From a virus (taxonomy: Duplodnaviria > Heunggongvirae > Uroviricota > Caudoviricetes), in the IMG/VR virus record IMGVR_UViG_2778261246_000006: a stretch of DNA of 34,300 nt. One strand, written 5' to 3'. The notes under the pieces are model-generated. The model saw only the letters and a list, made by a program, of their open reading frames with translations, searched no databases and was not told where the DNA came from. Made by a program: the position numbers and the translations under genes. This document shows positions 1 to 34,013 of this stretch, in pieces (position 1 is the stretch's first letter; every line of letters begins with the position of its first letter).

Positions 1-1032
1 TCAAAAACTTGCTATTGATGTTGGTAGTGTTGCCAGCGGATTAAACCGTAATGCAGTTTCCAGGTGATCCGGTGCCAGATGTGCGTAACGCATAGTCATT
101 TTTATATCGTGATGCCCGAGAATTTTTTGTAAGGCCAGGATATTTCCACCCGACATCATGAAGTGCGCCGCAAACGTATGGCGCAGAACGTGTGTCAGTT
201 GACCGCGAGGGAGCACGATAGACGTTTTTTCCATCACGGATAAAAATTGAAAATAGCAGTCTGTAAAGAAATTGAACCCATCAAGCGCCATGATCTCTTC
301 GTAAAGCTCTTTACTGATAGGGATGCTTCTGTTTTTCTTCCCCTTCGTTCTTACAAAGGTAATTCGGTATTTGGTCACCTGTGAGCGGGTAAGATTTACG
401 GCTTCACGCCAACGTGCGCCTGTGCTTAAGCATATCTTAACTACCAGTGCCAGAATTGGGTCCTGACGTTTGCAATCAGCCAGCAATTCAACAATCTGCT
501 CATGGGTAAGCCATGCCATCTCTTTTTCTGCGATGGTGAATTTTCGCATGTTCTCCAGTGGGTTCGGATACGACCATTCGCCCAGGCGGGATAGTTCGCT
601 AAAAACACTACTTAGATAGCTTTGCTCCAGGTTAATGGTGACCGGGCTTGCTCCTTTCTTCCATTTCTCGCTGAAGTAGATCTCACCTGTCAGGCGTTTA
701 TCTCGATAGTGGGCAAACATTTTAGATGTGAGATCAGTTGCAAGGGGATTGCCCAGAGCGTCAACCATCAGCAGCAATTTGTCATAGACATGCTGCCCAG
801 CAGTCAGTGATTTACCATGTAGTTTGAACCATAGCTCAACCACGTCTTTCAGTGTTCGACGATCCACTGATTCACCCAGCCAGGGCTTTGCTTCGGTTTC
901 TTCCATCGTGTGACGCTCAAAAGCCAGTGCTTCGCCTTTGGTGGCGAATTGTTTACGCACACGACGCCCACTACGTCCGGCGGGGTAACATTCGCAAAGC
1001 CATTTTCCTGTGGTGAGTTTTCGTACAGCCAT
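1..1032 (-). CDS. int: Tyrosine integrase (P2 Int family)
   Basis: Translation from MAVRKLTTGKWLCECYPAGRSGRRVRKQF shows recombinase boxes (TGARWRE; HVLRHTFAAHF; MRYAHL catalytic Tyr). GGAGGG RBS 8 nt upstream of the ATG at 1032; the ORF-track start at 1188 is probably an upstream in-frame extension. Confidence 0.9.
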   Translation of the reverse strand: MAVRKLTTGKWLCECYPAGRSGRRVRKQFATKGEALAFERHTMEETEAKPWLGESVDRRTLKDVVELWFKLHGKSLTAGQHVYDKLLLMVDALGNPLATDLTSKMFAHYRDKRLTGEIYFSEKWKKGASPVTINLEQSYLSSVFSELSRLGEWSYPNPLENMRKFTIAEKEMAWLTHEQIVELLADCKRQDPILALVVKICLSTGARWREAVNLTRSQVTKYRITFVRTKGKKNRSIPISKELYEEIMALDGFNFFTDCYFQFLSVMEKTSIVLPRGQLTHVLRHTFAAHFMMSGGNILALQKILGHHDIKMTMRYAHLAPDHLETALRFNPLATLPTSIASF

Positions 1033-1220
1033 AAAAAATGCCCTCCAATAGAGAGCATTTTTACTGTATGTATAACCAGTGTCAATGTATGAAATCCTGC
1101 GACCATACATCTCACTGAAGCCATAATGAAGTAGGCTATTCTTTTTGCTATGTGAGCATGTAACTTTTGCGGTTAACCTGTGGCTCATTTTTATTTTAGG
1201 CGCAGATATAAAAGCAAAAG

Positions 1221-1412
1221 TTATCGTGAGTTTTTAGTACAGATTTTTTTGGATTTACTAATAGTTCCATCATTGCAAACGAATTTGCCATCAGAGGTAC
1301 AGTGAGAAACACCTCCCTTTTTCCCTGAGCAGGGATAATTTCTAGCATAGGTAGCTAGTGGGTTTAATAACAAAGAACATGACAAAACCACAAAAAATAC
1401 CTTACCAAGCAT
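1221..1412 (-). CDS. Small secreted cysteine-rich protein (63 aa), candidate moron
   Basis: N-terminal signal-peptide-like segment [23 protein letters not shown], then about 40 aa with 4 Cys; GGAGG RBS 6 nt upstream overlapping the CI stop; AT-rich. Confidence 0.45.
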
Positions 1413-1427
1413 AATTTCCTCCCGGTA

Positions 1428-2003
1428 CTATTTAACATACTTGACTGTTAAACTTATAATTTTACCAATTATTTCAATGTCTTCTATCTTGCATTCGAAG
1501 GCTCTGTTTCCACCCTCGACGAAGATTCTTCCACCGGGTAAACGAGTAATGTCACGGATCGTTATTTCGCCATCAATACTTATTACCCATTTACCATCAC
1601 GTATATCATCAAATTCCTTATCACAAATAAATTCAGAATTATTATCTGTGATTACAAAAAGATTCTTGAATGCCGACGGTAGAAATTCTCTATCGAAAAT
1701 ATAAAAACCGTCTTCACACAAGGCCCCATCAGATAATACATATTTAGCAACTTCCATAGTATTTGTATTACCTGAAGTTTGCTTTGAACCATGCCCGGTT
1801 GTGAGCCAATTAAGCGAGGTGCCTGTTTCAAGGGCGCACTGGATTACCCATTCTGCTGGGAATGAGTCACGCATGTAGCGTGTGGCGAGTGTACTTTTAG
1901 AGATTCCTAAATGATCGCACAACGCCTGTCGAGTCTTGAATCCATAAGCTTCTACCATGCGCTCTATAGCGCCTCGTCCGCCTTTCTCCAAATTCATGGT
2001 CAC
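1428..2003 (-). CDS. cI: CI-type immunity repressor (phage 186 CI-like, 191 aa)
   Basis: N-terminal HTH-like region (ALCDHLGISKSTLATRYMRD); size and position (divergent from apl/cII, upstream of int) match the 186-type lysogeny operon. Confidence 0.8.
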   Translation of the reverse strand: MTMNLEKGGRGAIERMVEAYGFKTRQALCDHLGISKSTLATRYMRDSFPAEWVIQCALETGTSLNWLTTGHGSKQTSGNTNTMEVAKYVLSDGALCEDGFYIFDREFLPSAFKNLFVITDNNSEFICDKEFDDIRDGKWVISIDGEITIRDITRLPGGRIFVEGGNRAFECKIEDIEIIGKIISLTVKYVK

Positions 2004-7344: not shown

Positions 7345-7533
7345 ATGCAGGACTATTTTTTGGAGTCTTTGAAGCTCCAGCGCATTGATTTTTTTCTTAA
7401 GCTTGTAGCGGCTAGTGAGTGTAGTGATGAAGAGAAGGGGCTGGCTTTGCAGTGGGTTTCTGAACTGACTGATGAACTCATGGCGAAAATCAGAACCCAC
7501 GAATACAATCGCTCAATGGATGTCATCAGCTGA
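7345..7533 (+). CDS. Small protein (62 aa) downstream of the LexA box; possible Tum-like antirepressor N-terminal part
   Basis: Strong RBS (AGGAGG) before the ATG at 7345; immediately followed in another frame by the DinI-like ORF. Confidence 0.45.
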   Translation: MQDYFLESLKLQRIDFFLKLVAASECSDEEKGLALQWVSELTDELMAKIRTHEYNRSMDVIS

Positions 7534-7543
7534 GGTGACTTTT

Positions 7544-7777
7544 ATGCGCATTGAAATAATGATCGATAAAGAGCAGAAGATTAGCCAGTCTACCCTGGAC
7601 GCCCTTGAATCCGAGCTTTACCGCAATCTGCGCCCCCTGTATCCCAAAACGGTAATTCGTATCCGTAAAGGTAGCTCTAACGGTGTGGAACTGACCGGAC
7701 TGCAACTGGACGAAGAAAGAAAACAAGTGATGAAAATTATGCAGAAGGTGTGGGAAGACGACAGCTGGCTGCATTAA
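7544..7777 (+). CDS. DinI-family protein (77 aa)
   Basis: MRIEIMIDK...ELYRNLRPLYP...KIMQKVWEDDSWL matches the DinI fold pattern recalled from E. coli DinI (MRIEVTIAK...ILQETWE..DDW); GAGGTG RBS. Confidence 0.75.
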   Translation: MRIEIMIDKEQKISQSTLDALESELYRNLRPLYPKTVIRIRKGSSNGVELTGLQLDEERKQVMKIMQKVWEDDSWLH

Positions 7778-7899
7778 GAAACGTTGCTGGCGTCTGAACT
7801 TGCTTCTGGCGTCAGCAAGGTTGAACAACGAGCTGTGCGAGGCGTTAGTTGATATAGTATCAATATATAAAAGGTTTCTCGAAGTTTTAAGGTAAGGTT

Positions 7900-8619
7900 A
7901 TGACAACTATTAACAAGCATGGGTTATCTAGAACAATTCCTGAACCTGTAAAACTGGAGGTAAGGCAGCGCTGTGGCTTCGGTTGCGTTGTTTGTGCTTC
8001 TCCCATTGTTGAGTATGAGCATGTAATTCCCACATACGCTGATGCAAAGGAGCACTCTCCAAATGCAATAGCACTACTTTGTCCTACGTGCCATGCGAAA
8101 GTAACGAAACGTCTTTACTCTAAAGAGAAAATCATTAAAGCAATGGAATCTCCTGCAGCCTTACAAAAAGGGAATGTGGCCGATATATTGGACTTTTCTG
8201 ATAGGCATCCAATAATAATATTTGGTGGTGCGACGTTTGAATCCTGTACTGTACCAATAATGTTTCAAAATGAGCCATTGTTAACCATTGAAAAAGAAAA
8301 TAATGCTTTTCTTATTTCGGGTAAATTTTACGATAGTCAAGGTATTGTTAATCTTGAATTAATTAAGAATGAGTGGGTATGTAGTGCAAGGCATTGGGAT
8401 GTTCAGGTTGTCGGTCCTAGAATAACTATTATAGAAAAAAGGAAAGGTCCTCGTTTAATTATTAAAGTTGATGCGCCTGAAAGATTGATTGTGGAAAGAT
8501 TAGATATGTTGGTTAAGGGGACTCGGATTGTAGGAGACGAACACAAGCTAAGAGTCGGTCCACATCAATTTCACAACTGTGGAGTTTCAAATTGCAATAT
8601 TGGTTTCTGCTTTGGCTAA
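7900..8619 (+). CDS. HNH-motif nuclease-domain protein with unknown C-terminal domain (239 aa); cargo gene
   Basis: N-terminal CGFGCVVC...EYEHVIP...NAIALLCPTCH (CxxC/H-N-H/CxxCH arrangement); markedly AT-rich relative to flanking phage genes; own RBS. Confidence 0.6.
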   Translation: MTTINKHGLSRTIPEPVKLEVRQRCGFGCVVCASPIVEYEHVIPTYADAKEHSPNAIALLCPTCHAKVTKRLYSKEKIIKAMESPAALQKGNVADILDFSDRHPIIIFGGATFESCTVPIMFQNEPLLTIEKENNAFLISGKFYDSQGIVNLELIKNEWVCSARHWDVQVVGPRITIIEKRKGPRLIIKVDAPERLIVERLDMLVKGTRIVGDEHKLRVGPHQFHNCGVSNCNIGFCFG

Positions 8620-8732
8620 CTGGAGGTTGGAAAAAGACCATTTCCTATAAGCTGAGTATTTCGTGCATTTTTGCCAACGCATGTCTATGCCGCATGAAAT
8701 CGCATGATCGTTTGAGGATCGTTTTTGCTGAT

Positions 8733-8759
8733 GCCCGCCAGAGCTGGCGGGCTTTTGCT
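8733..8759 (+). terminator. Candidate rho-independent terminator after the HNH gene
   Basis: GC-rich inverted repeat GCCCGCC...GGCGGGC followed by TTTTGCTT. Confidence 0.4.
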
Positions 8760-8881
8760 TATGTCATGCAGGTGCATGAAAACCACTACACAAAGCGGGC
8801 AGGCGTGGCGGGGATACGAGCGCGCGCAAACATGTTTACTTGCAATTAATGTAGATATATTCTGAAATTGATAACTTACAC

Positions 8882-9091
8882 ATGAAAGGAGACGTGAGAG
8901 TGGCAAAATATACACCGGGCCAGAAAGTAAAACATGCAACAGGACATGGTCCAATCATGGTAATTGATCACTACCAATCGGCTACAATGGCAGTTTGTAC
9001 GTGGTTTATTGGTGCTAAGAACCAGCGCGGAGTTTTTCACGAAGATACTCTAGTTTTATTTGTTCCAAAAGCTGAGAGTGATGATGAATGA
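8882..9091 (+). CDS. Small protein (69 aa), YodC/DUF2158-like
   Basis: Pattern GQKVKHATGHGPIMVID...CTWFIGAKNQRGVFHEDTLVLF resembles the GDxVxLKSGGPxMTV...CxWF...F motif of DUF2158 as recalled; start could instead be an internal GTG. Confidence 0.45.
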   Translation: MKGDVRVAKYTPGQKVKHATGHGPIMVIDHYQSATMAVCTWFIGAKNQRGVFHEDTLVLFVPKAESDDE

Positions 9092-9350
9092 TTCTCTGAT
9101 AAAAATAGTTGACTGGATGGTTAATACCACTCGTTCTAATGGTGTGTTGTATCAGTCCGAGGTTGTTGAATTTCTAATCAATGACTTTGGGGACGAGTTC
9201 ATCAAAACTAATGAGAATGGTAATTACGCTATAAGCAGTACTGTGCTAGCAAATTTTAGAAAGGCTAGCAAAGACGATATAGTTTGGGATCGTGAACAGT
9301 TAGCTTGGCGTTTACGCAATGAAAGCGATTTACCCGGACGGATGCAGTAG
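9084..9350 (+). CDS. Hypothetical small protein (88 aa), translationally coupled to the upstream gene
   Basis: ATG at 9084 overlaps the upstream stop (GATGATGAATGA); AT-rich; no motif recognised. Confidence 0.45.
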   Translation: MNDSLIKIVDWMVNTTRSNGVLYQSEVVEFLINDFGDEFIKTNENGNYAISSTVLANFRKASKDDIVWDREQLAWRLRNESDLPGRMQ

Positions 9351-22053: not shown

Positions 22054-22488
22054 GTGTTTTTTAGTCCATCTTTAAATATTTTTGTGAATCCTGCGCTTAA
22101 GGATGACTACATCAATGTAAATTCATGGCCAGATGATGCTGTTGAAGTTGATGAGCAGGTGTATATTGAGTTTTCCGGATTACCGCCGAAAGGAAAAATC
22201 CGTATCGCTGGGGAAAATGGTTTTCCTGCATGGTCTGAAATTCCACCACCAACGCATGAGGAACAGATTGCCGCAGCCGAATTGAAAAAACAGCAATTGA
22301 TTAATCAGTCCAACGAATATATGAATACCAAGCAATGGCCTGGTAAAGCGGCTATTGGTCGTCTGAAAGGTGAGGAACTGGCGCAATATAATTTGTGGCT
22401 GGATTATCTGGACGCACTGGAACTGGTTGATACCTCCAGTGCTCCAGATATTGAATGGCCTACGCCTCCGGCAGCTCAGGCCAGATGA
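22054..22488 (+). CDS. G: Tail fibre assembly chaperone (P2 gpG / Mu U-like), currently in the expressed orientation
   Basis: 144 aa; conserved C-terminal ...DTSSAPDIEWPTPP; GTG start right after the H stop. Confidence 0.75.
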   Translation: MFFSPSLNIFVNPALKDDYINVNSWPDDAVEVDEQVYIEFSGLPPKGKIRIAGENGFPAWSEIPPPTHEEQIAAAELKKQQLINQSNEYMNTKQWPGKAAIGRLKGEELAQYNLWLDYLDALELVDTSSAPDIEWPTPPAAQAR

Positions 22489-23053
22489 CATCAGGCGCGG
22501 TGCTGGTATCTGTTGCCGTCACCGCGTCAATGTAATCCAGCACAATGTTAAGTCGGGTGGTTTCTGCCTGCATTAGCTTCCGTCCGGCCCGTAATTTCAG
22601 CTGAATCAGACTGATGGAAGCCATTGCAGCATCAATCAGTGACTGGCGCTGTGCTTCTGCCGCTTCTACTGCGGCACCGTGTTGTGCCTCAGTATCTGTC
22701 ACCCATTTCTCACCATCCCATTTATCATATGGCGTTAACGGTGAAAGCGTGACATAACCGTTTTTGATGGCACCGATATAATCCACTGTAACAGCTGCGC
22801 CATTTTCGATTGAGTAAACAGTCTCATTGCGATGGTCTTCTTCATGGCTCCATCCCTTACCCGTAAATACTGCCACTTTTCCCGGAATGTTTTCGCCAGG
22901 GTCAATACCAGTGGAACAGGCGGGCATACTTACGCCAGTATTAATATATTCATCAGACCAGCCCGTATATTCATACGTTACTGCATCATAATAAAAACAA
23001 CGCATATCACCCGGCACTGTAGCCAGTCCATTTTCATCAAAAACAGGTTTCAT
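22460..23053 (-). CDS. Alternative tail fibre assembly chaperone (U'-like) in the silent orientation
   Basis: 197 aa; C-terminal ...DTSTAPDVIWPELPEA parallels gpG; convergent with G, 3' ends overlapping by 29 nt. Confidence 0.75.
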   Translation of the reverse strand: MKPVFDENGLATVPGDMRCFYYDAVTYEYTGWSDEYINTGVSMPACSTGIDPGENIPGKVAVFTGKGWSHEEDHRNETVYSIENGAAVTVDYIGAIKNGYVTLSPLTPYDKWDGEKWVTDTEAQHGAAVEAAEAQRQSLIDAAMASISLIQLKLRAGRKLMQAETTRLNIVLDYIDAVTATDTSTAPDVIWPELPEA

Positions 23054-23562
23054 TATTTAGCCCTTACTAAAAAGTTGAATGCGATGTTACGGGGACGCGT
23101 TTCAGTACCGCCTGGGTTTTGAAAAGCGGGCAAAGCACTTCCAGCCGGCTGACTAACGCCGCTGGTATATAATGGAGAAGCATTCGAAACGGTGCCAAAC
23201 ACTACATTACTGCCACTTCCATTTAGCCCTAAAATTTTATGCTCGTGCGTTTTGAAATCGTCTGATTGCGCGGAAAGTAACGCACGGCCACTATCAACAC
23301 CACGGCCATCATCCCAGATACGAATGAAATCACCGCGGGCTTCAGGTAATACCAGCGAAGGAAACACTTTTGCCAGCACAGGATAATCAGTGGCAGAGAA
23401 TTTCGCGCCGTTGAACTTCAAAAACACCATACTGGACCAGCTGTCGATTACAGTATTTGGCATTGCAGCGGACGGCCAGAAGAACGGAACGCCAATAGCT
23501 GGAGCACCTTCTCCCAAACCAACGTTTAAGAAAATGCAGAGGTAACAGCTAACTGGCATCAT
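23053..23562 (-). CDS. Alternative tail-fibre variable C-terminal segment (Sv'-like), promoterless; would fuse to the H constant region after inversion
   Basis: Minus-strand frame reads ...LGLGEGAPAIGVPFFWPSAAMPNTV..., sharing the LGLGE junction with H at the crossover site; the functional coding part starts at the crossover (~23520), not at the ORF-track ATG. Confidence 0.6.
   Translation of the reverse strand: MMPVSCYLCIFLNVGLGEGAPAIGVPFFWPSAAMPNTVIDSWSSMVFLKFNGAKFSATDYPVLAKVFPSLVLPEARGDFIRIWDDGRGVDSGRALLSAQSDDFKTHEHKILGLNGSGSNVVFGTVSNASPLYTSGVSQPAGSALPAFQNPGGTETRPRNIAFNFLVRAK
23509..23532. repeat. Right inversion crossover site (inverted relative to 21691-21716)
   Basis: TTCTCCCAAACCAACGTTTAAGAA; inverted repeat of the site inside H. 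Confidence 0.65.
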
Positions 23563-23589
23563 CTCCGGTTTTTATTCAGGGGGATGATC

Positions 23590-24156
23590 ATGCTTATTGG
23601 CTATGTACGCGTGTCAACAAATGACCAGAACACCGATTTGCAACGTAATGCACTGAACTGCGCGGGATGTGAGCGGATTTTTGAGGACAAAATCAGTGGC
23701 ACTAAGTCCGACAGACCGGGGCTGAAAAAACTACTCAGGACACTATCGGCAGGAGACACGCTGGTTGTCTGGAAGCTGGACAGGTTGGGGCGCAGTATGC
23801 GGCATCTTGTTACGCTGATAGAAGAGTTGCGCCAGCGTGGTGTGAATTTCAGAAGCCTGACTGACAGTATTGATACCAGTACCCCAATGGGCCGTTTCTT
23901 TTTTCATGTCATGGGTGCCCTGGCTGAAATGGAACGCGAACTGATAGTTGAACGTACCAGGGCAGGGCTGGCTGCAGCTCGTGCCAAAGGCAGAGTAGGT
24001 GGACGCCGTCCTAAGTTGACCACCGAACAGTGGGCACAGATTGGGCGTTTACTCGAGGCCGGAGAATCAAGACAGCGTATTGCACTGATTTTTGATGTAG
24101 GCGTTTCTACCATTTATAGAAAATTTCCGGCAAATAAGATCAATGAATCCCCCTGA
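23590..24156 (+). CDS. pin: Serine DNA invertase (Pin/Cin/Gin/Hin family)
   Basis: MLIGYVRVSTNDQNTDLQRNALNCAG... catalytic Ser in YVRVST; C-terminal HTH; near-identical in character to e14 Pin as recalled. Confidence 0.95.
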   Translation: MLIGYVRVSTNDQNTDLQRNALNCAGCERIFEDKISGTKSDRPGLKKLLRTLSAGDTLVVWKLDRLGRSMRHLVTLIEELRQRGVNFRSLTDSIDTSTPMGRFFFHVMGALAEMERELIVERTRAGLAAARAKGRVGGRRPKLTTEQWAQIGRLLEAGESRQRIALIFDVGVSTIYRKFPANKINESP

Positions 24157-31445: not shown

Positions 31446-31525
31446 CGCTGCCGCCATTTTGTCGCCATCGTTAAAAAACAGTGCTTCTAACATCATGATT
31501 TTAAACGGTATAAATTTCAGACAAC

Positions 31526-31568
31526 AAAAAACCCATCAACCTTGAACCGAAATGGCGGGGTTGATGGG
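31526..31568 (-). terminator. Stem-loop with a T-run on the minus strand; candidate terminator downstream of ybjL, in the expected attR region
   Basis: Perfect 10-bp stem CCCATCAACC / GGTTGATGGG with 17-nt loop, preceded on the plus strand by AAAAAA. Confidence 0.45.
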
Positions 31569-31680
31569 CTCCACAAAATGGGGACATCAAAGAAAAGCAG
31601 TGGCACTAATTAAGACTGATGCCCTGCGGAAAAGTTCTGCGGTTGTGCAAAAAAATTTCATTTTCAGGGCAACTTCAGTT

Positions 31681-33366
31681 TTATCCTAATCCTGGCCATA
31701 CCATGACGATGATTGTCCCTGCCAGCGTCAGCAGGACGTTGGCGATTGCATAGGTGCCCGCATAGCCCAGCGCCGGGATGTTACTGCGAGCTGTATCACT
31801 GATGATCTCCATTGCCGGCGCGCAGGTACGTGCGCCCATCATTGCGCCGAACAACAGTGCGCGGTTCATTCGCAATACATAAGCACCGAACAAGAAACAG
31901 ATAACCACGGGCACCAGACTGACAATCAATCCGGCAATCAACATCTGACCGCCAATCGCGCCCAGGCCGTTATTAATACCGCTACCGGCGCTCAGACCAA
32001 CGCCTGCCATAAACACCATCAAGCCGAACTCTTTCACCATGCTTAATGCACCTTGCGGAATGTAACCGAAGGTCGGGTGGTTAGCACGCATAAAGCCCAG
32101 CATAATTCCGGCGAATAACAACCCGGCAGCGTTCCCCATGCCGAAACTGAATGTGCTGAACTGGAAGGTGATCATCCCGATCATCAGCCCAATAACAAAG
32201 AAGGCGCAAAATGCCAGCAGGTCAGTGACCTGGCTGTGAATCGAGATAAAGCCGATGCGATCGGCGATGGTTTTTACGCGACGGGCATCACCGCTGACTT
32301 GTAAAACGTCACCTTTGTTAAGCACGACGTTGTCATCTATCGGCATCTCAATCTGGCTACGAATGACGCGGTTAAGGAAGCAACCGTGATCGGTCAACTT
32401 CAGTTGTGCGAGACGTTTACCTACAGCGTTATGGTTTTTAACGACCACTTCTTCAGTGACGATACGCATGTCGAGAAGGTCACGATCGAAAACTTCTTTA
32501 CCGTTACGGAAGCTGGGATCGAGTCGGGCATGGGCGTCGGGATAGCCTACCAACGCTATTTCATCGCCCATTTGTAGCACGGCATCACCGTCTGGATTTG
32601 CCAGAATCCCGTTACGTCGAATACGTTCAATGTAGCAGCCGGTTTGTCGATAAATACCCAGTTCACGCAGATTTTTGCCGTCGGTCCAGGCCACCAGCTC
32701 CGGGCCGACGCGATAGGCGCGGATCACCGGTAAATAAACCTTACGGTTGGCATCAGTGTCCAGGCCACGTTCGCGGGCGATTTGCTGGGCGCTGGTCTGT
32801 AAGTCCTGATGCTGCAATTTCGGCAAGTAACGCGCACCAACAATCAAACTCACCAGACCGATTAAATAGGTTAAGGCATACCCGAGGCTCAGATTATCCA
32901 GTGCCAGTGAGAGCTGCCTGCTTTCCATGCCGAAATGACGCAGTGTATCGCCAGCACCGACCAGAACCGGTGTCGACGTCATAGAGCCTGCTAACATACC
33001 GGCCGTCAGGCCAATATCCCAGCCAAACAGCTTACCTAACCCTAAGGCGATCACCAGCGCACTGCCAACCATCACCAGTGCTAACATTAGGTAATTTTTC
33101 CCATCGCGAAAAAAAATGGAAAAAAAGTTCGGTCCGGCTTCGACCCCGACGCAGAAAATAAACAGCATAAAGCCAAGATTAAGCGCATCGGTGTTAATGC
33201 TGAAATGTTGTTGGCCTAATAACAGCGATACGACTAAAACGCCAATGGAATTACCCAGTTGGATCGAACCAAGTCGTAACTTTCCGAGACATAGCCCAAG
33301 CGCGAGGACCACAAATAATAACAGAATGTAATTCCCATTTAACAATTCGGCGACGTTTATATTCAC
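31681..33366 (-). CDS. ybjL: Putative transport protein YbjL (AAE-family transporter, 561 aa); host gene
   Basis: 561-aa polytopic membrane protein with a central soluble region; recognised with flanking ybjM and grxA as the E. coli ybjL-ybjM-grxA locus. Confidence 0.85.
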
Positions 33367-33635: not shown

Positions 33636-34013
33636 GTGAAACATAAACAACGTTGGGCGGGGGCAATCTGCTGTTTTGTCCTCTTCATTGTGGTGTGCCT
33701 TTTTCTGGCGACGCACATGAAAGGCGCTTTTCGGGCTGCCGGGCATCCTGAAATCGGCTTGCTGTTTTTCATTCTTCCTGGAGCAGTTGCCAGTTTCTTT
33801 TCACAGCGTAGAGAAGTCCTGAAACCTCTATTTGGCGCAATGCTGGCGGCACCCTGTTCAATGCTTATTATGCGGCTGTTTTTTTCACCGACCCGCTCAT
33901 TCTGGCAAGAGCTGGCATGGTTACTAAGCGCGGTGTTCTGGTGTGCGCTGGGGGCACTGTGTTTCTTATTTATCAGTAGTTTGTTTAAACCACAGCACAG
34001 AAAAAATCAGTAA
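33636..34013 (+). CDS. ybjM: Inner membrane protein YbjM (125 aa); host gene
   Basis: Four hydrophobic segments; conserved neighbour of grxA. Confidence 0.8.
   Translation: MKHKQRWAGAICCFVLFIVVCLFLATHMKGAFRAAGHPEIGLLFFILPGAVASFFSQRREVLKPLFGAMLAAPCSMLIMRLFFSPTRSFWQELAWLLSAVFWCALGALCFLFISSLFKPQHRKNQ

Follow-up and report, generated by a model that had tools for sequence, protein, structure and literature searches.

A 63-codon gene on the minus strand of a 34,300-nucleotide viral sequence (IMG/VR record IMGVR_UViG_2778261246_000006, the whole of which is called the window below) is best explained as a genuine member of the YdcA family and as cargo that a 186-like prophage lying beside rybB carries in its lysogenic operon, directly behind the cI repressor gene. 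The probability of this reading is put at about 0.6, a figure that covers mainly the identity and location of the gene, its transcription from the cI promoter and translation from its own site, and the export and disulfide steps of its product. The gene and its family are already catalogued in RefSeq, NCBIfam, Pfam and the PHROGs, so no new element has been discovered, and the gene is ordinary as an element.

Organization of the repressor-integrase region

The window was recognized as a 186-like prophage because it encodes a 186/HP1-type CI repressor (Pfam Phage_CI_repr, 2.8e-33, and Phage_CI_C, 2.7e-27), a tyrosine integrase, and Apl-like and CII (CP76) genes at 2123-2886 in the orientation opposite to cI and int (Table 1). 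RefSeq places the start of cI at 1997, two codons further in, and annotates an int of 1032 nt in the same prophage type. The region resembles that of phage 186 in its repressor type, its apl/cII/fil neighbours and the orientation of cI and int, but differs in what lies between these two genes. In the pL unit of 186 (cI-int-orf69), for which the database record annotates co-transcription from pL, the cI stop and the int start overlap by 1 nt and no gene intervenes, whereas 395 nt (1033-1427) holding ydcA and a structured int leader separate cI and int in the window, 188 nt of which form a spacer between ydcA and int.

The ydcA gene follows cI on the same strand after a gap of 15 nt, in agreement with the co-orientation given in the first-pass annotation of this DNA. 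Read directly on the minus strand from 1430 to 1410, the junction is TAG TACC GGGAGG AAATT ATG. The strong ribosome-binding site that had been proposed was confirmed as GGGAGG (1423-1418), 5 nt before the ydcA ATG, but its supposed overlap with the CI stop was not, as it begins 4 nt after that stop (1430-1428). With a G+C content of 35.9 %, against 40.3 % for cI and 52 % for the window, the ORF is AT-rich, as first described, and shows the deviant base composition of a moron. Rfam models matched nothing in the ydcA region, and RybB was their sole match in the window. A near-consensus sigma-70-like site (TTAACA-17-TATAAT, 11/12) at 1432-1460 on the plus strand runs antisense into the 3' end of cI and may be due to chance in AT-rich DNA.

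At its far end the window contains the RybB sRNA at 31523-31601 on the minus strand (Rfam RF00110, 105 bits), followed by a ybjL-like gene (Asp-Al_Ex and TrkA_C) at 31681-33366 on the minus strand and ybjM at 33636-34013 on the plus strand. These are host DNA, which places the right prophage border before about 31.5 kb. In Escherichia coli BL21(DE3) and FDAARGOS_433, rcdA borders the int end of this prophage type, which puts the attachment site in the rcdA-rybB interval. Elsewhere in the window, the interval between the replication and portal genes (7472-9350, plus strand) carries a DinI-like gene and genes for a 239-aa HNH-motif protein and a DUF6953 protein; the replication-to-portal interval is the main defence hotspot of P2 phages (PMC13586616). 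A serine recombinase gene of the resolvase/invertase type (23584-24156, plus strand) stands beside tail-fibre assembly genes (22460-23562, minus strand), which suggests that 22460-24156 is an invertible tail-fibre (host-range) segment.

Table 1. Features of the window and of the related loci used for comparison
Feature	Sequence	Position or identifier	Strand	Basis or remark
ydcA-like CDS, 63 codons plus stop at 1221-1223, ATG start	Window	1221..1412	-	ORF list
Predicted Sec signal peptide, residues 1-23	Window	1344..1412	-	Hydropathy, -3/-1 residues, homologue alignment
Mature 40-aa domain, 4 Cys, pI 9.7	Window	1224..1343	-	Family alignments, AF2, dN/dS
Shine-Dalgarno GGGAGG of ydcA	Window	1418..1423	-	Read from sequence
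cI repressor gene, 186/HP1 type	Window	1428..2003	-	Pfam; RefSeq 'phage repressor protein CI'
Integrase gene, ATG at 1032-1030, stop at window start	Window	1..1032	-	Pfam Int_N and Phage_integrase
Candidate terminator/attenuator or int translational operator, 13-bp hairpin	Window	1034..1062	-	RNA fold, conservation
Promoter-like site TTGACA-17-AAAAAT, just upstream of int	Window	1057..1085	-	Consensus scan, 10/12 matches
Promoter-like motif and hairpin before int	Relatives	L166 5535-5620, L170 5295-5385, L003 3470-3558		
YdcA-family ORF, 60 aa	Haemophilus HP2/S2	NC_003315 complement 2486-2668 (L001 2944-3126)	-	Unannotated in HP2 record
ydcA-int cargo: KAP-family NTPase, candidate defence protein PDC-S20	E. 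coli prophage, P0013-type ydcA allele	L166 4198-5529		PADLOC 1.3e-171
ydcA-int cargo: P-loop NTPase fold protein	E. coli FDAARGOS_433			Same position as KAP NTPase
ydcA-int cargo: 347-aa protein	Hafnia	L170 4247-5290		No PADLOC match
ydcA-int cargo: ISL3 element and ClbS/DfsB-like gene	E. coli CE10	L174 855-2612		
Behind cI: 558-aa protein, PD-Lambda-1 model	vB_EcoM-813R9, without ydcA	L003 1791-3467		PADLOC 3.1e-120
Behind cI: 349-aa protein	Klebsiella phage 4LV2017, without ydcA	L002 1851-2900		No PADLOC match
YdcA-nuclease fusions	Family representatives	P0189, P0213, P0223, P0157, P0126, P0226, P0220		
SNase-associated loci	Several Alphaproteobacteria and other taxa	L128, L138, L140, L145, L157, L159, L160		

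Family membership, selection and prevalence

The translated ORF matches the NCBIfam model NF007463 (PRK10040.1-2, YdcA family) with 114.6 bits over residues 5-63 of 63, the curated cut-off being 93, and the functionally unassigned family PHROG 6000 with an E-value of 3.1e-34, while PF27300 ('YdcA') is precomputed on 58 of 63 of its homologues. The copy of Pfam that was searched, which does not hold PF27300, gave only a sub-threshold GULLO2-like match. The ORF is no orphan, given these family assignments, the chromosomal K-12-type ydcA that the same family includes, and an existing RefSeq annotation, which reads 'hypothetical protein' or, where PGAP was run recently, 'YdcA family protein'.

The window protein has every residue that is invariant or nearly so in two family alignments, including the core F-x-C-x-D-G-x-x-S-x-S-K ... 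C with its four Cys, and the 63-aa length fits the small size of the family (about 55-65 aa) with a predicted N-terminal Sec signal peptide. The prophage gene shares its architecture with a chromosomal paralogue, the E. coli ydcA beside cybB. The K-12-type protein (57 aa, encoded beside cybB/rydC; families NF007462/NF007463, PF27300) likewise consists of a signal peptide and a PCSG-KGG-[VI]-SHC... core with four Cys; the window protein differs from it in belonging to the NF007463 subgroup, its NF007462 score of 68.5 bits being below the cut-off of 118, and its gene differs in being prophage-borne behind cI instead of standing next to cybB. A profile search of 1.84 billion representative proteins returned 460 YdcA-family clusters, and the species-level loci belong to Gamma-, Beta- and Alphaproteobacteria. 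Betaproteobacterial members of about 105 aa (P0056, P0058, P0060 and P0062) have a Cys-rich C-terminal module, C.C...C.GPRGG.YC...G.K.Y, which may be the Pfam PBCV_basic_adap domain that two longer representatives match.

Compared with the BL21(DE3) allele, the whole ORF has 13 nt differences, of which 11 are synonymous and 2 non-synonymous (dN/dS 0.044), and the mature part has 9 synonymous and 1 non-synonymous (dN/dS 0.023). Relative to a 67 %-identical paralogue type that other prophages of E. coli carry, saturation has been reached at synonymous sites, dN of the mature part is 0.05 and the signal peptide has diverged freely. The mature part is under strong purifying selection, and we are confident of this. 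A chance ORF at 1221-1412 was ruled out by the HMM scores and dN/dS; the NF007463 score above its cut-off, the PHROG 6000 match and the dN/dS of the mature part bear out the earlier reading of a real gene.

Of 5,426 complete E. coli genomes, 597, among them HS and BL21(DE3), contain the ORF, and 648 contain this cI allele. Two genomes with more divergent cI alleles have an intact ydcA copy 15 nt behind cI, and one disrupted copy, split by IS5, was seen among those inspected. IMG/VR contains 493 relatives of the ORF; the 80 loci listed are all 98-100 % identical copies of the same prophage and speak for prevalence without diversity. In the decayed prophage of BL21(DE3) (NZ_CP053602 872712-878282), cII and a replication gene are pseudogenes, and int, ydcA and cI are intact.

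Predicted export and structure of the product

The N-terminus has the n/h/c layout of a Sec signal, with K4, a hydrophobic stretch spanning residues 5-16 (Kyte-Doolittle means of 2.2-2.7 over 9 residues) and T-Y-A at positions -3 to -1; the signal peptide was called from hydropathy, -3/-1 heuristics and the alignment of homologues. The cleavage column reads SFA, SYA or AQA in 24 homologues, directly before an almost invariant motif, and in the family alignments the signal peptide evolves fast, the AxA-type site is kept and the mature core is nearly invariant. The mature part of 40 aa has four Cys, nine K+R against two D+E (both Asp), a net charge of +7 and a pI of 9.7, and a fifth Cys (C12) lies inside the signal peptide. 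AF2 pLDDT values are 84-91 over residues 31-60. Re-reading, hydropathy and alignments all reproduce the first-pass description of a 63-aa ORF whose signal-peptide-like N-terminus ends in ATYA and whose mature part, of roughly 40 aa, has four Cys. The K-12 YdcA, of 57 aa, is described as having a signal sequence and as predicted to be periplasmic (bioRxiv 10.1101/2024.02.12.579971). On these sequence features, the window protein is likely exported by Sec, cut after ATYA and folded as a two-disulfide periplasmic knot; removal of residues up to ATYA23 and closure of both disulfides would, with high probability, give a 4.3-kDa knot of pI 9.7.

Processing as a lipoprotein was considered, with cleavage at a VLS/C12 lipobox and anchoring in the outer membrane like Llp and Cor. 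V-L-S-C at residues 9-12 fits the lipobox consensus and one family member is named 'Lipoprotein' in UniRef, but Cys12 is unusually near the N-terminus with further hydrophobic core after it, position -1 is I, F or V in homologues (LLIC, LLFC, ILVC) if the Cys is present at all, and the AxA site before NYPCS is kept in all of them. This reading is very unlikely, and it was rejected because the C12 lipobox is not conserved in homologues.

A bacteriocin-like toxin or immunity factor exported against competitors, as the first-pass annotation had suggested, has the smallest probability of the readings weighed here and was rejected. The product is small, cationic and Cys-rich and has a leader, and so resembles class II bacteriocins and microcins superficially. 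However, the ORF matched no bacteriocin, microcin or immunity family in Pfam, NCBIfam or the PHROGs, and it has no partner gene for immunity or processing and no dedicated exporter beside it, being flanked by cI on one side and the 188-nt spacer and int on the other. Its homologues are single chromosomal genes in many Proteobacteria, and its leader is a Sec signal, which in a Gram-negative cell delivers to the periplasm only. None of the PADLOC defence models matched the ORF.

Transcription and the int leader

A consensus scan of the minus strand found no promoter-like or terminator-like site between cI and the ydcA ORF. Given the 15-nt gap, the common orientation and this result, co-transcription of cI and ydcA is the simplest expectation, and ydcA is likely expressed with CI in lysogens; very probably the cI promoter, pL, would drive its transcription there, and its own GGGAGG would serve for translation. 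The designation as a moron held for accessory presence (ydcA is found in HP2/S2 and many prophages and is absent from 186) and for base composition. It failed for the flanking promoter and terminator, none of which were found for ydcA itself, and unlike a textbook moron with its own promoter, ydcA rides along in the operon of cI.

The RNA fold of 1025-1235 on the minus strand has an energy of -58.6 kcal/mol (z = -4.64 relative to shuffled controls). The hairpin before int, with a 13-bp stem reading AAAAAUGCUCUCU-AUU-GGAGGGCAUUUUU, contains the int Shine-Dalgarno, is flanked by an A-tract and, after the stem, by a U-tract, and is the only terminator-like element found near ydcA. The E. coli KAP-type, Hafnia and vB_EcoM-813R9 relatives preserve its stem with changes in both arms, and a TTGACx-17/18-TAAAAT-like motif upstream of it is conserved in relatives regardless of the upstream cargo. 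As far as their sequence indicates, the hairpin and promoter-like motif may terminate the message of cI and its cargo, control int, or do both. Their conservation, together with the U-tract, suggests that the lysogenic message may largely end after ydcA, with int separately controlled or attenuated. The gene had been placed inside a cI-int transcript; the expected linkage to cI stands, with no site found between the two genes, but the extension into int may be attenuated, given the hairpin and promoter-like site.

Position behind cI in related phages and prophages

E. coli KAP-type prophages, Hafnia, CE10, FDAARGOS_433 and the decayed BL21(DE3) prophage all keep ydcA paired with cI. The comparison of cI-int regions proposed in the first-pass annotation thus showed the pair to be kept in divergent prophages, with the IS5-split copy as the one disruption seen. 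The genes between ydcA and int in these relatives, and those behind cI in phages without ydcA, are given in Table 1. Among P2 phages, 8 % of defence systems sit between integrase and primase (PMC13586616).

The YdcA-family ORF of Haemophilus HP2/S2 resembles the window gene in lying directly after cI and before int on the same strand. Its ATG starts on the last base of cI and overlaps the stop. It differs in that HP2 has a 254-aa orf1(S), with a signal-peptide-like N-terminus, between the YdcA ORF and int, where the window has no such gene. The Haemophilus host of HP2/S2 is a naturally competent species of the Pasteurellaceae. Using tblastn, no YdcA match was found in the P2 or 186 records, nor in any Escherichia, Salmonella or Klebsiella phage record. 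The statement that the gene has no counterpart in P2 or 186 is therefore correct, in keeping with the cI/int overlap of 186, but it does not extend to the wider Peduoviridae, in which HP2/S2 and the E. coli and Hafnia prophages have one.

Moraxella and Acinetobacter siphophages carry YdcA homologues among their tail genes. Over the 79 species-level loci, the upstream neighbour of the YdcA gene is a CI-type repressor in seven, and the gene stands beside cybB in five. The gene is a mobile accessory that, within Peduoviridae, travels preferentially with cI. Its conserved linkage to cI, of which the unannotated HP2 gene is one instance, was not found in the literature searched.

Association with nucleases and similarity to Dis2

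Fused Pfam domains recognizable in the 63 representatives that reach 100 aa or more are Endonuclease_NS (5), SNase (2), PLDc_2 (1), PBCV_basic_adap (2), VasL (1) and DUF4124 (1). The YdcA domain directly follows the signal peptide in the nuclease fusions inspected, N-terminal to the nuclease. In 7 of 80 species loci, an SNase ORF on the same strand lies beside the domain or is fused with it. The mean net charge of the domain is +3.9 (183 variants). The sharing of one small basic module by three unrelated nuclease folds suggests that the domain supplies substrate binding or localization; fusion is equally compatible with a localization or anchoring module or a pro-domain as with DNA binding. 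The association was not found in the literature searched. YdcA is best read as a periplasmic cargo protein made with CI in the lysogen, and it may serve as a polyanion- or DNA-binding module. The binding step itself, in which the knot would bind a polyanion, most likely nucleic acid, is proposed tentatively, at somewhat under even odds, from the repeated fusion or adjacency of the same domain to secreted nucleases of three unrelated folds.

Dis2 of Legionella pneumophila (Lpg0823; 7muc_AN), an outer-membrane-cap subunit of the Dot/Icm T4SS, was the top Foldseek PDB match (E 0.47, prob 0.75) and the top sequence-profile match (E 4e-5). Pairwise alignment with hhalign gave 95 % probability and 48 % identity over 25 columns. 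Statistically, the homology is moderately supported. Like YdcA, Dis2 has a signal peptide and the motif C-S-K-x-GG-I-x-x-C...VCN(D/N)G-x-x-S, which occurs twice in it. Dis2 differs in being a tandem duplication of 124 aa built into a secretion machine. The YdcA domain probably matches the two Dis2 lobes. The disulfides of Dis2 are visible in cryo-EM density (PMC8486379), its two lobes lie near the outer membrane and contact DotK, DotC and DotD (PMC8486379, PMC12716638), and it has been described as Legionellales-specific with no obvious homologues (PMC12716638). A relationship between YdcA and Dis2 was not found in the literature searched, and a query with 45 aa of Dis2, cut out of the HMMER alignment, returned no Dis2 homologue candidates. 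A similarity to LDL-receptor class A domains was judged a coincidence of cysteine spacing, since an invariant Ser of YdcA stands where LDLa has its third Cys.

The two lobes near the outer membrane and the top rank of Dis2 in both searches also fit Dis2-like docking of YdcA on outer-membrane lipoproteins or complexes, which would alter them, for instance by hiding a receptor for phages or an apparatus for secretion or conjugation. We regard docking of this kind as improbable. The position of Dis2 at the outer-membrane face of a secretion machine, and not on DNA, was counted against a DNA role of YdcA (PMC12716638).

Possible roles in the lysogen

The last step of the proposed mechanism, which goes beyond the DNA-binding periplasmic cargo protein and is doubtful, would have the YdcA of the lysogen act at the envelope against incoming foreign DNA, through superinfection exclusion or a block to DNA uptake. 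It was proposed because such roles are common for genes co-expressed with phage repressors. Lambda bor and lom, T5 llp, phi80 cor and T4 sp are envelope-acting genes expressed in lysogens, and they too encode small exported phage or prophage proteins; YdcA has no detected sequence similarity to them, PHROG 6000 being its only significant PHROG match. We know of no exclusion or serum-resistance phenotype for any YdcA protein. Against the exclusion step stands the fact that phage DNA does not normally lie exposed in the periplasm during injection. The occurrence of the family in ordinary chromosomal contexts as well (beside cybB in 5 of 79 loci) means that its role need not be phage-specific.

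A role in stress tolerance is nearly as likely as an envelope barrier to incoming DNA. An extra copy of YdcA, made constitutively from the cI promoter, would shield or condition the envelope, for instance under acid or organic-acid stress, and so benefit the lysogen. The only reported ydcA phenotype is that of an E. coli W deletion, which is severely impaired by 300 mM 3-hydroxypropionate, and induction of ydcA at pH 5 under YdcI is cited in the same work (PMC7642389); this sensitivity would indicate stress tolerance rather than exclusion. The wide distribution of the family in non-phage chromosomal contexts and the survival of an intact ydcA in BL21(DE3), whose prophage has decayed to the point that cII and the replication gene have become pseudogenes, are in keeping with a benefit to the host. 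However, the phenotype is erased by deletion of yieP (PMC7642389), and it may be polar, since the adjoining rydC encodes an sRNA activating cfa and acid resistance (bioRxiv 10.1101/2024.02.12.579971). A host-fitness role also leaves the nuclease fusions and neighbours unexplained.

A broader and unlikely proposal, placed between the stress-tolerance and docking readings in probability, is that the YdcA knot is an unrecognized periplasmic nucleic-acid-binding mini-domain, attached by bacteria to secreted nucleases and, in its free form, captured by temperate phages and used as a DNA trap. If this is true, the P2/186-like phages, HP2 and the Moraxella and Acinetobacter siphophages would be the lineages that captured a free-standing YdcA, and the repressor-linked YdcA of the P2/186-like and HP2-type phages would block superinfection, transformation or conjugation. 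Dis2 would then be a duplicated relative of YdcA recruited into a secretion machine derived from DNA transfer.

Conclusions

A YdcA encoded in a repressor operon is present in the prophage of about 11 % of complete E. coli genomes, including those of BL21(DE3) and HS, and its position and prevalence together suggest that it is probably constitutive in many tractable strains. The constant cI-ydcA passenger, set against the variable slot between ydcA and int with its PD-Lambda-1 and KAP NTPase (PDC-S20) systems, offers an anchor for mining that slot. The association with nucleases and a probable kinship with Dis2 are the first sources of testable hypotheses on the YdcA family, and the latter bears on a T4SS subunit regarded in the literature as lacking obvious homologues. 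Together with the cI-ydcA linkage, they make an uncharacterized family testable in standard strains.
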